NCBI GenBank assembly: GCA_964291315.2
Contig: OZ219752.1
Location: 256,001 to 320,000, forward strand
Direction of reading: 5' to 3'
DNA length: 64,000 bases
Source of the DNA: Candidatus Poribacteria bacterium
GTDB lineage: Bacteria; Poribacteria; WGA-4E; WGA-3G
Shown: positions 5,915 to 10,589 of the stretch, piece after piece
Position numbering within the stretch: the stretch's first letter is position 1
Layout of the letters: every line of letters starts with the position of its first letter
The notes under the pieces: generated by a model
What the model saw: only the letters and a program-made list of their open reading frames with translations
Databases searched by the model: none
Told to the model about the DNA's origin: nothing
Program-made: the position numbers and the translations under genes

Positions 5915-6604
5915 CTATGAAAATAATTCTGTCAATACAGATTCTGTTCTGACTGCCTGCACCGTCCCGTTCGCGAATCGCATCGCCGACAAATGTGCAT
6001 ACAGAAAGTCCAGATCTTCAACTGTATCTATATCATACCATGGAGGTAGTAAGCCAACGCTTGCTTTTGCCGAACGTATGCGTGTCATTGTCTGTTGAAA
6101 AACGTCTGCTGTACTCCAAGGAATGTCCTCAAATACAAGCGGCACAGTCGTTGTTACATTCGCTGCAGAAAATCCTATGAGGTAATAGCCTCCATCTGTG
6201 CTCGGTCCAATGACGACATCGCGCCAGTCAAGTTGTGTAAGTGCTTGTGAAATATATGAAATAGGTAGCGTCGGACTGTCAGACCCGACGAGTAAAATTT
6301 TCGTATATCTGTGTTCAGCTGCCCACTGTGTCGCTGAAGCGAGTCTGTTTCCAAGCCCCGTTCCTGTCTGCGCTATATAGATAGGACCTTCTCCGATTAA
6401 CACTCGTAAATCCGATTCTGCTTCTGGTGGGGTATATGCAACGATTAAATCCACATCAGAGAGTTTCTTGATGATTTCACACCAATCTGTGAGGAATGCC
6501 GTGTACAATGTCGCCGCTTGCTCGGGTGACAGTGTTGGAACAAGCCGCGTCTTAACCTGATTCGGCACCGGGTTTTTAGCAAAAACAGTCACGCACATCT
6601 TCAC
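5915..6604 (-). CDS. TIGR04282/DUF2064-family glycosyltransferase (CofC-like)
   Basis: FAKNP..VKTRL, GSDSP, GPSTDGGYYLIG, WYDIDT motifs. Confidence 0.88.
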   Translation of the reverse strand: MKMCVTVFAKNPVPNQVKTRLVPTLSPEQAATLYTAFLTDWCEIIKKLSDVDLIVAYTPPEAESDLRVLIGEGPIYIAQTGTGLGNRLASATQWAAEHRYTKILLVGSDSPTLPISYISQALTQLDWRDVVIGPSTDGGYYLIGFSAANVTTTVPLVFEDIPWSTADVFQQTMTRIRSAKASVGLLPPWYDIDTVEDLDFLYAHLSAMRFANGTVQAVRTESVLTELFS

Positions 6605-7332
6605 CGATTAAGTTCCTTGTTTGGCATAAAGGGTAGAGAGAGTTGATGCGGAGTCGGTTCGTCGGTTGAAAGAAGTTGGATTTCATCTGTTATAATCTTT
6701 AAATAGCGGTCTCGGTCTTGAAATATTCGTTCATCAACCCATCCATTTTTGGACAATGAAACAAATAGAGCAGCTGCGCGCGCTTGGCAATTGATTCCGC
6801 GCTTTGGGTTGAAAACGATGTCTGAAAAGCCCTGATATGCTTCGAGTTTTTTCACCAGGTCTCTCTCGTTCTGGTGGAGTGCCTTCATATACAACCAGTC
6901 ATAGAAGGCTGTTTTAGGTTCAGTCGGGAATTCTTCGCCACAGAGATCGAAAGCGATGAGTTCTCCTGAATTCCGTAGTCGCTCGTCGGTTTTTGCTGCT
7001 CGACTGGACACGGAGTAAAGCTCATGATAGGGGCCTCCATTTTTAAACACCTTGCTTCCTTGATAGGCACACTCTACGGTTGTCTTCTGGCCCTCCGGTA
7101 TTTCTAGTTGCAGATTAAAAGCACTCAGTGAAACACCCAATTCTAATCTGGATTTACCTGAAATTTCCAAAATAGGGCTGATACTGTATTTTTTGGCGGC
7201 TTCATGTAAGGAATCAATGGATTTTTGCAGTTGAGATTTTGCGAAGCCTGGATACCATTTAAACGTTAAGTCTATTTCATCAACATACGGGAATCCATTG
7301 AGGTTGGACGTGAAAATAGGGCGTTTTGCCAT
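6601..7332 (-). CDS. DarT1-associated NADAR antitoxin (DarG1-like ADP-ribosyl hydrolase)
   Basis: MAKRPIF start, LEISGKS, LSAFNL, ECAYQGSKVF, FYDWLY, FSDIVFNP, NCQARA; lies downstream of DarT. Confidence 0.88.
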   Translation of the reverse strand: MAKRPIFTSNLNGFPYVDEIDLTFKWYPGFAKSQLQKSIDSLHEAAKKYSISPILEISGKSRLELGVSLSAFNLQLEIPEGQKTTVECAYQGSKVFKNGGPYHELYSVSSRAAKTDERLRNSGELIAFDLCGEEFPTEPKTAFYDWLYMKALHQNERDLVKKLEAYQGFSDIVFNPKRGINCQARAAALFVSLSKNGWVDERIFQDRDRYLKIITDEIQLLSTDEPTPHQLSLPFMPNKELNR

Positions 7333-7456
7333 TGTGCTCTGCTCCTAAAACAGTGTGGTACTGATATCTACAGGGAACTTGATCTTACTCATTAACAACG
7401 CACACAATAGAATAAAAAGGTGAGCAGTTTAATGACTTACTCAGGTCGGTTGAGAG

Positions 7457-7642
7457 TTATAGGTTTTTATCTTGGACATATAGGAGTAATCCAGTGTAAA
7501 AACCAAGTGCTGCGAGTTGTAGTCCTATAGCGATCGCGATTATTTGTGATCCTGCTTCTTGAATGAGAAAGAGGACTAGGAGTGATGTTGCCGCTAATAG
7601 CATGACGTTCGCTATTGCCATTAGATGTGTTGCTTTCAACAT
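7457..7642 (-). CDS. small two-TM membrane protein
   Basis: AAGGAGA RBS; two hydrophobic helices in 61 aa. Confidence 0.6.
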   Translation of the reverse strand: MLKATHLMAIANVMLLAATSLLVLFLIQEAGSQIIAIAIGLQLAALGFYTGLLLYVQDKNL

Positions 7643-7709
7643 GATTGTCTCCTTAGTTGCGTGCTGTTAGGATAAGGCAACACACCCCACCCCCCAACAC
7701 AATAGATTA

Positions 7710-8010
7710 TTACCTGTATGTCTGCCGTGAGAGGTGCAGGTCGCCCATCACTGCAGACATGAATTCGCTATGGCTCCGCGGATCTGTGTAGACGGCTTGT
7801 TTCCCCAGGCTTACCTCCTAGGTTCCCGATGAAGATATAGGAGAGTCCGTACTCACTAGCCCTCGTCCTGAGACGGGGCATATTCAGCTCAGGTCTATAC
7901 CTTGAGTAAGGTCTAGACCTCACGTCTACGAGGTATTGTACCCCTTTGTTCTTGAGGGTTGTTAGCATATCCTCAGGGTTACTGTTCCCATAACCGATTG
8001 TGTAAATCAT
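7710..8010 (-). pseudogene. DUF488-family gene, frameshifted/truncated
   Basis: IYTIGYG, LVDVRSRPYSR, LGG motifs; frame ends after 80 aa; alternative frame after the GGGGAAA run reads AVYTD..SEFMSAV and stops at 7710. Confidence 0.7.
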
Positions 8011-8067
8011 CTAAGGTTCTCCTTGTTAGAGGGCAGGGCATACACCCCACCCCCTCATTTATTACAA

Positions 8068-9456
8068 TTACAACCTTGGCTCATCTTGCCACGTTTCATC
8101 TATCGGATGATAGATGTCATCAGTTTCCCAGAATCCGAGGAGGTTATAGAGATCGCATAACCCGAAATCCTCCCTCAGCTCATGGTTCGCTGAGGCAGCC
8201 ATCCAAAGGGCTGCTGACCTTGCTTGGCAAGCCACCCCTCCTTTCGTGAACTTGAAGAAGAGGTCTGTGAATCCTTCGGCTGGAGAGAGCATTACATCAT
8301 TCTCTATCAGAGCTTTGATGTATATCCAGTCAAAGAATAATGTTTTAGGCCAGGTTGGGATCTCCTGGCCTTTGTAGTTGAACCCTATAAGTTTCCCGGA
8401 GCTTCTTAGACGCTTATCTGTCTTTGCGTTTCTAGGACTCATTTTATAGAGTTCGTGATAAGGTCCCCCATTCTTGAACACCTTACTGCCCTGGTATAGG
8501 CATTCGATGGGTATCCCTTTCAGTTTTAGGTTGAAGGCACTGAGTGCCCTCCATCTTTGTAACGACGACGCTGTGCTAATCTCATAAATAGGGGTGGGCA
8601 GCCCCATCTCGCTCGCAGCAGCGTGTATTGCCCTGACGTTCTCACTATTAGTGCTCCGCCACGCGAATCGGACGGGCACTGTTTTTACGTATCCACACTC
8701 GTAATCAGGGATAAAAACGGGAAGCACGGCTGGAACTACGTCACTAGTTGGGGCGTATGAAAGAGGTATACCATTGGCATCAAGATTTTCACTCTTCCAT
8801 ATACTATAATCAGATCTGGAATCGAAATATTGCCGGGAAATTTTATAATTGGAACTAGTTCTGATGGGCATCAATCTTTCTTGAGCAGCAGCATCCCAAT
8901 AGTGGATTTCCTTAATATATTGTACTGGTATTGGATTAAAAACCAGTACCTCTGCTTGCGGATGTGTTGGATAATTTTGGGGTATTGACAAATCTTGATG
9001 CCTTATACCATAGAAATCTTCAAACAGATCTTTCAATGCTTCGGGTCTTTTTCTATTTTCCAATGGAACGTTGTTAACGCGCCGGCTTGCAGCATTTTCC
9101 TTGCAAAAGGCACACTCAAATTCCCACAACACTTTTGCATCAAGCAAGAGAACAACCCATTGGGCATATTCGACTCCTTCCCAATCTTTTCTAAGCTTAT
9201 AAAACATTTTGTAATTTGGAAAACTAATGCTTAGACAGACCGCGTCCGTATTGTTATCGGCTCGATCGGGATCATTGAACAAAAAATTTCTTCTATCTGC
9301 TTCCAAAGCACTCCGCGACAGCAAGCCATCTTGTAAGATACTCGGTAAGTTTTCAATTCGAGTAAAGTGGCAAAGCGTTGTTATCTCTTTTTCTTCACAA
9401 ATTTGTTGTATCTGCCGTGCTCTCCAATTTTGTTCATAGAAATTTAACATCGGCAT
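8068..9456 (-). CDS. DarT (DUF4433) DNA ADP-ribosyltransferase fused to a C-terminal NADAR domain
   Basis: N-half: HFTRIENLPSIL..GLLSR, CLSISFPNYKMFY, QAEVLV; C-half: LSAFNL, ECLYQGSKVFKNGGPY, FFDWIY, CQARSA, homologous to 6601..7332. Confidence 0.88.
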   Translation of the reverse strand: MPMLNFYEQNWRARQIQQICEEKEITTLCHFTRIENLPSILQDGLLSRSALEADRRNFLFNDPDRADNNTDAVCLSISFPNYKMFYKLRKDWEGVEYAQWVVLLLDAKVLWEFECAFCKENAASRRVNNVPLENRKRPEALKDLFEDFYGIRHQDLSIPQNYPTHPQAEVLVFNPIPVQYIKEIHYWDAAAQERLMPIRTSSNYKISRQYFDSRSDYSIWKSENLDANGIPLSYAPTSDVVPAVLPVFIPDYECGYVKTVPVRFAWRSTNSENVRAIHAAASEMGLPTPIYEISTASSLQRWRALSAFNLKLKGIPIECLYQGSKVFKNGGPYHELYKMSPRNAKTDKRLRSSGKLIGFNYKGQEIPTWPKTLFFDWIYIKALIENDVMLSPAEGFTDLFFKFTKGGVACQARSAALWMAASANHELREDFGLCDLYNLLGFWETDDIYHPIDETWQDEPRL

Positions 9457-9560
9457 GCTTCCTTATCTAAAATTGAGTTTGGAAAAGTATACTGCATTTC
9501 AAAAATAAATCAACACCTTTTTATGTCAAAGAATCAGTGGATAACTGATATTACTCGCTG

Positions 9561-10589
9561 CTACCGATCGTCAACCCTCTCACGAACCGCGGGGTTGTCC
9601 GGTTCTACCGGTTCCGGACGCTGATCTAGCCACCACGCGAAGACAACGACAAGACACGCAAGCGCAATTCCACTCAGGGCCATCGGGATACCTGTTGATT
9701 TTCCATCACTTGCATCAATCTGGTATTTTGCAGCAACTGCTGATGCTATCGCAGCTACGGCCATCACGAGGTTCACGAGCCATGGAACTTGACAAAGCAC
9801 CGCAATCAGCGAAACCACAGCGGTAGTCAAACTCAATTGTGCAAGGGGGTGATAAGGTGTTGCGTTAATTTTCTCATCATCGGAGCCTTCTGTGTCTCTA
9901 TGCGAAACTGGAACCGGTGCCCCTTCTTGATATGTCAGCTCAATGAGTCTAATGAATTCTGGTAGTAGCTTTTCCTCTTGAATCCACTCAAAAAGGTCAG
10001 GATATTCGTGCCGGAGAAGGATTACAAATTCTTGACGTTGGGCACTAAAATCTGTAAATTCTTCCCAATCGCTTTCTGGGACCGTGACGTATGGTTCAGG
10101 ACCGACACGAAGTTGATAGCCGTGTTCAGCAATATAGACGACGCTCCCAACCCCTTTGCGTTCAGCGATCCGTAATTCTGTCAAGTCGTCGGGATCCACC
10201 TGTTGACTCCTGTCTTCCTCGACAACAGCCATATCGCGTTGTTTAAGTGCCTGCGCTGTCGCTTCAGATCGCATTGCCATTTCGTTGTCTGTAACAGCTA
10301 CACCGATACGACTTACCAATTCCATTGCCGTTACTTCATGCTCAGGTGCCACAAGAAGCGCGGTTTCACGTTTCTCTTTTAATTCGATCGGTCTGCACCG
10401 GATCTGCTGTGCACTCAGAGTGACTTGAATCAGCTTCACTTCCCATTCATCATGGGTCCGGTGAATCTCTACCCAATCGCGAGTATTGCCGACACCTTCC
10501 CCAAATAACTGCGATACTTGCCTCAACTGGCTTTGACTCACGTGTGTATCTTGTGCTGTGCTGATTGTTTTTTTTCTTTTTTCATTCAT
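9561..10589 (-). CDS. hypothetical membrane protein with C-terminal DUF4190-like TM region
   Basis: HPLAQLSL...AKYQI....G...G..MA..GI pattern, three TM helices. Confidence 0.65.
   Translation of the reverse strand: MNEKRKKTISTAQDTHVSQSQLRQVSQLFGEGVGNTRDWVEIHRTHDEWEVKLIQVTLSAQQIRCRPIELKEKRETALLVAPEHEVTAMELVSRIGVAVTDNEMAMRSEATAQALKQRDMAVVEEDRSQQVDPDDLTELRIAERKGVGSVVYIAEHGYQLRVGPEPYVTVPESDWEEFTDFSAQRQEFVILLRHEYPDLFEWIQEEKLLPEFIRLIELTYQEGAPVPVSHRDTEGSDDEKINATPYHPLAQLSLTTAVVSLIAVLCQVPWLVNLVMAVAAIASAVAAKYQIDASDGKSTGIPMALSGIALACLVVVFAWWLDQRPEPVEPDNPAVRERVDDR

Follow-up and report, generated by a model that had tools for sequence, protein, structure and literature searches.

Why should a DarT1 toxin carry an antitoxin-type NADAR domain in its own chain if a free NADAR is encoded just downstream? 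The question is raised by a minus-strand locus (6601..9456) in a 64,000-nucleotide stretch of contig OZ219752.1 (GenBank assembly GCA_964291315.2); the whole stretch is called the window, and all coordinates are positions within it. At this locus, DarT1 runs in frame into one NADAR (here NADARa), and a second NADAR (here NADARb) stands as a gene of its own. The carrier is a sponge-symbiont-type bacterium that shares its order with Candidatus Poribacteria metagenome-assembled genomes (MAGs). NADARa is the divergent copy of the two and NADARb the canonical one. We tentatively propose, with slightly less than even confidence, that the locus is a DarTG1-type module in which NADARb would be the working antitoxin and NADARa a second eraser, tethered to the toxin and subject to either relaxed or diversifying selection. 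The enzymatic activities, the identity of the NADAR that neutralizes the toxin, and an anti-phage function are all properties that we infer from sequence.

Domain content of the fused protein

A single uninterrupted open reading frame (ORF) of 462 residues, at 8068..9456 on the minus strand of the ORF list, runs through DarT1, a linker, NADARa, and an acidic tail. It matches both PF14487 and PF22397, and a separate 243-residue ORF matches PF22397, which bears out the preliminary description of a DarT1 that continues in frame into a full NADAR and is followed by a second, free one. Genome-wide, one DarT and two NADARs are found, all at this locus.

The toxin half is nearer to DarT1 than to DarT2 in both sequence and fold. 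PF14487 (DarT) matches residues 29–209 (77.8 bits; cut-off 22.5), and the PADLOC DarT profile matches the fusion (E = 4.2e-10). Sequence search returned 8baq, the Escherichia coli C7 DarT1, as the only DarT structure matched (E = 1.7e-37). By Foldseek, the AlphaFold2 (AF2) model of this half—with a predicted local distance difference test score (pLDDT) mostly of 81–95—aligned with 8baq at a template-modeling (TM) score of 0.88 and a root-mean-square deviation of 2.2, against TM scores of 0.47–0.61 for DarT2 structures. Residues important in E. coli C7 DarT1 by mutagenesis or structure are H17, F18, R35, N48, R52, D54, S63, M71, F72, N104, Q150, and E152 (PMC11543638); in the alignment to 8baq, all of their equivalents are identical. 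The QAE motif, rightly described earlier as intact, occupies residues 167–169 and aligns with the Q150/E152 site. Phylogenetically, the window's DarT lies inside a 25-row clade consisting mainly of DarTs with long N-terminal WD40 parts (Shimodaira–Hasegawa-like approximate likelihood ratio test, SH-aLRT, 98).

PF22397 (NADAR-DarT1) matches residues 246–429 of the fusion (165.8 bits; cut-off 27; profile positions 4–200 of 212), and NADARa begins at approximately residue 241 (nucleotide ~8736), within a few bases of the start first proposed at ~8730. The key residues of DarT1-associated NADARs are E88, K95, K115, and D171 (PMC11543638), and their equivalents in NADARa—E318, K325, K345, and D398—are all kept. 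E318 and K325 lie within ECLYQGSK and D398 within F-T-D, in agreement with the retained ECxYQGSK and FxD motifs noted before. The Asp of an FFDW motif was considered as the D171 equivalent and rejected: counting from E88/K95/K115 puts D171 at the Asp of F-S/T-D, a residue that all 13 of the fused proteins keep. DarT1-associated NADARs also carry a strand-strand-helix N-terminal extension (PMC11543638), and the extension modeled in NADARa (residues 241–283) has strands at 241–251 and 256–266 and a helix at 270–283. Two changes mark its beginning: the Arg of the start motif is lost, and a five-residue loop is deleted from the extension. NADARa is modeled with pLDDT 76–95 and matches the Geobacter lovleyi NADAR 8bat at TM 0.83 (Foldseek); 8baq and 8bat are the two best Protein Data Bank (PDB) matches of the full-length model.

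The AF2 model, built on 13 fused homologues, gives pLDDT below 50 for the linker (residues 222–240) and the tail (445–462), and it places DarT1 and NADARa relative to each other without confidence (predicted TM score, pTM, 0.50). Because both domains are modeled confidently, the linker falls below pLDDT 50, and the pTM is 0.50, the protein reads, in the model, as two complete domains on a flexible tether of ~20 residues. A docking prediction of the DarT half against NADARa scored 0.00 where the mark is 0.32, gave no answer, and bears neither way. The linker contains no stop codon and no Met. A separate NADARa product from an internal start was considered and rejected: residues 197–283 contain no ATG, and no ribosome-binding site is evident for the GTG at V244.

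Divergence of NADARa and the proposed roles of the two NADARs

Conservation was scored over 60 alignment columns, each at least 90% conserved in 89 reference NADARs, which themselves keep a median of 59 columns and a minimum of 51. NADARb keeps 58 of the 60 and NADARa 40, which reverses the earlier assignment of the stand-alone NADAR as the divergent one. NADARb matches the full PF22397 profile (279.2 bits), has its catalytic positions at E87, K94, K114, and D171 (by residue count, in agreement with the alignment), and shares 75% identity with the free NADAR that occupies the equivalent slot in a congener's genome. NADARa is 48% identical to NADARb over 184 residues and has the longest end branch of a 95-row NADAR tree (1.52, against a median of 0.16). 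Searches for close relatives of NADARa gave at best 42–46% identity among 35 matches, 48% among 850 near-length matches, 47% in an HMMER scan of 1.84 billion representatives (next best 140.6 bits, against 529 for NADARa itself), and 47% among the 80 loci of a metagenome scan.

Fused NADARs elsewhere can be canonical. Those of a Selenomonadaceae locus (L061) and of protein clusters P0002 and P0005 keep 58/60, 60/60, and 59/60 columns, and these three together with the free NADAR of L090, scored for comparison, span 58–60. In simple fusions, most NADARs retain a Met-Ala-Lys/Asn-Arg-Pro start motif of their own. Within 5 kb of L061, no second NADAR is present; the gene context of P0002 and P0005 lies outside the data compared, as does that of P0004 and P0013, two clusters that match the divergent pattern described next.

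The layout of the window—a fused or in-frame NADAR plus a free NADAR—recurs in three genomes of a second family of the order, with no other recurrence seen. One of them, G037 (L007/L086), is the Candidatus Poribacteria record with which the window's genome shares its order, and it has an open DarT–NADAR fusion and a free NADAR. The extra NADARs of G037, G028, and G040 keep 41–45 of the 60 columns and have lost K115. Like NADARa, they have Leu in place of the start-motif Arg (LPVF) and Pro in place of a Ser, and their loop deletion overlaps that of NADARa. A 32-row tree (LG+G4) places NADARa and the second-family extras on one side of a branch (SH-aLRT 75.6), and the best tree contains this grouping; it is weakly supported and may owe something to long-branch attraction. 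The rule that emerges from these comparisons is that a fused NADAR would stay canonical where it is the sole NADAR seen (L061) and drift where a canonical free NADAR is present. Such a contrast would amount to a natural experiment on the constraints that antitoxin duty imposes.

Because the fused copy is divergent and the free copy canonical, NADARb is the likelier working antitoxin. DarT1 and NADARb are separate genes on one strand, and the 735 bp that separate them hold two small ORFs; DarTG1 is recognized as separate adjacent genes on one strand, which describes DarT1 with NADARb and does not describe the fused NADARa. By homology, DarT1 would transfer ADP-ribose from nicotinamide adenine dinucleotide (NAD+) to N2 of guanine in single-stranded DNA (ssDNA), and NADARb, as a putative ADP-ribosyl-guanine hydrolase, would erase this DNA mark in trans as a type IV antitoxin. 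Erasure in trans is expected because a two-hybrid assay detected no binding of canonical DarG1 to DarT1, and DarG1 is classed as a type IV antitoxin (PMC11825919). NADARa may then serve as a tethered second eraser, fixed at 1:1 with the toxin and limiting self-damage where DarT1 works, and the backup provided by NADARb would free it from strong constraint. Either mechanism first suggested, a self-neutralizing writer–eraser polypeptide or one toxin with two erasers, may apply.

Several observations weigh against this proposal. NADARa has the lowest conservation of the 95 NADARs compared. Its extension contains 4 Lys/Arg residues, against 7 in NADARb, and basic residues of this extension have been proposed to bind ssDNA (Schuller et al., PMC11543638). 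Beside its catalytic Asp, FNP has become FKF. At a column retention of 67%, all four catalytic residues would be kept by chance with a probability of ~0.2, so their retention is weak evidence of selection. In the toxin half, Y75, which contacts guanine O6 in DarT1, is replaced by Leu, and the NCBIfam toxin_DarT equivalog model scores the fusion below its cut-off (25.5 against 150 bits). Within the second family, the fused NADAR of G028 (L087) is interrupted by an in-frame TAG three codons ahead of its catalytic Glu, and in G040 (L010/L088) a TAA separates DarT from the extra NADAR; because of these two stops, the sequences suggest that an extra NADAR can be lost.

Much of this would also fit NADARa as a decaying passenger: a foreign NADAR–DUF488 block that happened to land in frame and left an ordinary DarT1–NADARb pair with a useless appendage. 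We regard this as unlikely, though a serious contender. It would account for the low conservation and long branch of NADARa, for the stop-cut and stop-separated NADARs of G028 and G040 in the sister layout, for the fully canonical NADARb, and for the neighbor of the same composition as NADARa, a truncated DUF488 pseudogene. Accidental fusion is also easy: in 31 of 160 ordinary loci (L003–L082 and L094–L173), DarT1 and NADAR share a frame and only one stop codon separates them, and therefore one mutation can fuse the pair. Arguing the other way, the 227-codon frame of NADARa is still open despite an end branch of ~1.4–1.5 changes per site, and its fold is modeled with confidence and close to 8bat. 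The four catalytic residues are kept, the catalytic Glu also appears in the readable stretch of an alternative allele (below), and the layout persists in two families of the order.

As a separate observation on the packing of these genes, the DarT1 and NADAR frames overlap in 74 of the 160 loci, and the pair is tightly packed nearly everywhere.

Origin and strain variation of the NADARa block

The genes of the locus lie on the minus strand in the order 462-residue fusion, 80-residue DUF488 remnant, 61-residue ORF, and 243-residue NADARb (Table 1).

Table 1. Parts of the DarT1–NADAR locus in window coordinates
Feature	Coordinates	Strand	Evidence
Fused DarT1–NADARa gene	8068..9456	minus	Single ORF; DarT and NADAR-DarT1 Pfam matches; 8baq TM 0.88, 8bat TM 0.83 (Foldseek)
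DarT1 domain, ~residues 12–220	8797..9423	minus	8baq, phmmer E 1.7e-37
Linker, residues 222–240	8737..8793	minus	pLDDT <50, predicted disordered
NADARa, residues 241–430	8167..8736	minus	PF22397, 165.8 bits; 8bat E 4.1e-24
Local repeat copy 1, GGGGGTGGGGTGT core, leader of DUF488 remnant	8035..8054	minus	Repeat search
DUF488 remnant, 80 residues	7768..8010	minus	PF04343, 39.8 bits, profile 3–64 of 121
Local repeat copy 2, leader of 61-residue ORF	7675..7694	minus	Repeat search
61-residue hydrophobic ORF	7457..7642	minus	ORF list; GC3 0.328
NADARb, free NADAR, 243 residues	6601..7332	minus	PF22397, 279.2 bits, profile 1–211 of 212
Weak promoter-like site upstream of fused gene	9502..9529	minus	TTGACA-16-TATTTT, 10/12 matches

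Composition breaks within the fused gene. GC content at third codon positions (GC3) is 0.340 in the DarT half and 0.533 in NADARa, followed by 0.550 in the DUF488 remnant, 0.328 in the 61-residue ORF, and 0.420 in NADARb; among 35 long ORFs of the window, the mean is 0.491 and the minimum 0.407. The compositional difference first suspected between the two halves is thus present, with the DarT half below the minimum of the 35 ORFs. Across the genus, the flanks are syntenic (SDR, TIGR04282-like, a 342-residue membrane protein, GT1, and TsaE), and a variable cargo slot (6604–9561 in the window) lies between the TIGR04282-like gene and the membrane protein gene. The slot holds a WD40-DarT and one NADAR in G003 (L084); a WD40-DarT, one NADAR, and a DUF6602 protein, together with a DUF6785/DUF6784 protein, in G008 (L186); a DUF6785/DUF6784 protein and a PemK/MazF toxin in G016 (L187); a DUF6785/DUF6784 protein in G018 (L189); and an ABC-2 permease and an ECF sigma factor in G007 (L188).

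Contigs from other samples vary in the same place. We aligned Logan contigs of four runs with 6401–9700; X1 is possibly the source sample of the window, and X2 and X3 come from other samples in its study. The DarT half and linker (8708–9456) differ little in X2, X3, and a minor X1 haplotype (8 of 642 bases, ~1%, in X2), and NADARb shows at most one difference in X2 contigs. From 8063 to 8707, X2, X3, and the minor X1 variant are less than 90% alike to the window, save for a 24-base island at the conserved LSAFNL motif, and in the DUF488 remnant the samples differ by many substitutions and indels. The compositionally foreign block is therefore the block that differs between co-occurring strains. 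Composition, synteny, and the contigs of other samples support NADARa plus the DUF488 remnant as a swapped-in, strain-variable block; because the GC3 break, the congener synteny, and the strain-level replacement coincide, we propose that recombination placed a block carrying NADARa and a DUF488 gene, since reduced to the remnant, between NADARb and an ancestral DarT1 gene. Of the suggestion that a recent insertion created the fusion, the insertion stands on the same three grounds; its recency does not, as the relatives of NADARa reach at most 48% identity.

The replacement allele itself appears to be a NADAR with the catalytic Glu, because hand translation of the loose end of an X2 contig gives ..GIPVEC.. 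at the place of ..GIPIEC.. in the window. Over residues 208–227, the five listed substitutions of the alternative allele are all non-synonymous, and none makes a stop. The variation may reflect either diversifying selection or simple import of divergent alleles. If the variant allele sequences confirm it, replacement of the NADARa block beside a near-invariant toxin half would point to a determinant of DarTG specificity.

This pattern is what draws attention to a regulatory role, in which NADARa would act as a hypervariable, cis-tethered gate or sensor as in CapRel. It would check DarT1 in cis and release it once a phage factor bound or inhibited NADARa, its divergent alleles would be kept among co-occurring strains by an arms race with phages that may carry, for example, NADAR-type or DarT-binding counter-defenses, and NADARb would be the safety eraser that protects the host genome. 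We consider this improbable. In its favor, the strain-variable block starts at the linker–NADARa boundary and runs into the DUF488 remnant, beside a DarT half ~1% different and an NADARb with 0–1 differences in X2, and all five of the listed linker-region substitutions are non-synonymous. K115 is required for rescue in vivo and not for catalysis (PMC11543638), and the fused extra NADARs of the second family lack it. Relatives of this DarT are fused to other candidate sensor domains (WD40 and ankyrin), and CapRel offers a precedent (available part of PMC9712102). Set against these points, canonical DarG1 does not bind DarT1 in the portion of PMC11825919 available, AF2 does not pack the two domains against each other with confidence (pTM 0.50), and variability is just as high in the neighboring pseudogene, so the variation may be no more than the trace of a recombined block, with no selection on NADARa. 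Were the gate or sensor role true, DarTG1 would here have moved from a non-contacting type IV antitoxin to fused, CapRel-like sensing.

Coexisting strains also raise the prospect that the fusion is an assembly or sequencing artifact, produced where two strain variants meet, by a haplotype switch or an indel. X1 does hold a second haplotype (depth ~442, against 651 for that of the window), and its Logan contigs break within the linker, at 8746/8747, so that no single X1 contig bridges the whole linker. X1 contigs nevertheless show 0 differences from the window on both sides of the break (7915–8746, 8747–8864, and 8835–9259), and their depths fit phasing (651, then 656). Over 8747–8864, the two variants are distinguished solely by substitutions and contain neither gap nor stop, and a 1304-nucleotide X2 contig runs ungapped from 9349 to 8708 and then 662 nucleotides into variant sequence. 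The same fused layout is open in an independent genome (G037 = L007). Examination of the junction with contigs thus revealed neither stop nor frameshift, and we regard an artifact as very improbable.

The remaining parts of the locus add little to the choice among these explanations. The DUF488 remnant covers only the first half of its domain; its best PADLOC match is the defense candidate PDC-M45B (E = 9e-15), and no DUF488 relative was found in the other DarT–NADAR loci scanned, which comprised genome-contig loci and order relatives, metagenome loci apart. Neither Pfam nor PADLOC assigns the 61-residue ORF to a family. A GCGATCGC palindrome lies within it; a cyanobacterial source, which this site might suggest, was rejected because a Candidatus Poribacteria record (G037) is among the order-level relatives of the genome. 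Low-depth contigs of X4, a run from a different study, cover the ORF with three differences. A G-rich 13-mer (GGGGGTGGGGTGT) is common to the leaders of the DUF488 remnant and the 61-residue ORF; it occurs twice in the window, against 0.02 expected, and three times genome-wide. A TATTGTGT-type motif is present in all three intergenic leaders (including 7402–7414 and 7697–7709). These repeats look like local duplication of an intergenic leader rather than a dispersed repeat, and we rejected GGGGGTGGGGTGT as a genome-wide repeat or an integron-like cassette boundary, as only three genomic copies exist, two of them here.

Promoter and terminator counts in the region do not exceed those of shuffled sequence (7 promoter-like sites, against 5.7 expected). 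At the distal end, the NADARb stop and the GTG start listed for the TIGR04282-like gene that follows share 4 bases (6601–6604), and therefore the toxin–antitoxin module may be co-transcribed with this housekeeping-looking gene.

Frequency of the fusion and relation to known systems

DarT1–NADAR fusion is rare (3 of 160 sampled loci) and arose repeatedly. DarT and NADAR share one stop-to-stop ORF in 3 of 80 genome loci (L007; L036, at a contig edge; and L061) and in none of 80 metagenome loci. Both Pfam domains occur in 13 of the 120 best protein clusters listed for the whole protein, that of the window included. Fused forms occupy at least six separate places on the 95-row NADAR tree, among them a well-supported fused clade of six rows around the Selenomonadaceae MAG. 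On the question of whether such a fusion is already common or described, the architecture is therefore not unique to the window, with 13 of the 120 listed clusters and several places on the tree. We found no description of a DarT1–NADAR fusion in the main texts of the DarT1/NADAR papers searched (including PMC11125620, PMC12945103, PMC11825919, and PMC9503650). New relative to the literature found are the fused architecture, its pairing with a free NADAR in this order, and the difference in conservation that separates sole from redundant fused NADARs, taken with the strain variability of the block that holds NADARa.

Other DarT1 partners were seen among P0006–P0120 and at L089 and L090. The closest DarT1 domains (~50–63% identity) form the C-terminus of WD40 beta-propeller proteins, and further partners include ankyrin repeats and sigma-70 domains (P0110). 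L089 encodes two tandem DarT domains in one ORF, and P0003 is a Macro-DarT-NADAR triple fusion of 618 residues. With DarT1 fused to WD40, ankyrin, sigma-70-like, and Macro domains, the order of Candidatus Poribacteria is a rich source of DarT architectures.

A single-chain DarT1–NADAR fixes writer and eraser at 1:1, and because this ratio is fixed, models that depend on antitoxin turnover or altered stoichiometry do not apply to such proteins, which makes them useful test cases for how infection unleashes DarT1.

The locus is a rare, repeatedly evolved variant of DarTG1 and not a new kind of system. Like the DarTG1 systems of E. coli C7 and Geobacter (Trichlorobacter) lovleyi, it has the same enzyme families, the toxin first, the same catalytic residues and folds, and a free NADAR (PMC11543638 and the available part of PMC11825919). 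Unlike them, it joins toxin and NADAR in one polypeptide and has two NADARs, of which the fused one is divergent and strain-variable. CapRel also places a toxin and an antitoxin-like domain in one chain; its enzyme families are unrelated to DarT1 and NADAR, and its antitoxin domain binds the toxin and senses phage proteins, as given in the accessible part of PMC9712102, two properties that would extend to NADARa only under the gate or sensor reading.

The simple fusions (Selenomonadaceae L061; P0078, P0090, P0099, P0101, and P0107; P0002, P0005, and P0032) resemble the window in having one ORF with DarT N-terminal. They differ in that their NADAR is canonical in those scored (L061, P0002, and P0005), whereas the window has a degenerate fused NADAR and then a free one. 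Thermosipho africanus DarTG (PDB 7omu) has a title and a 376-residue chain that fit a DarT joined to its eraser, and we take it to be a natural DarT2–macrodomain fusion; it belongs to the DarT2/macrodomain (thymidine) system, in contrast to the DarT1/NADAR of the window. The second-family loci have the same three-part layout as the window. Their DarT halves are only 42–46% identical to that of the window, and, unlike the window, they have no DUF488 remnant or small ORF between the genes. They have lost K115, and in two of the three genomes a stop lies in or before the extra NADAR, whereas the window's fusion keeps K115 and an open frame.

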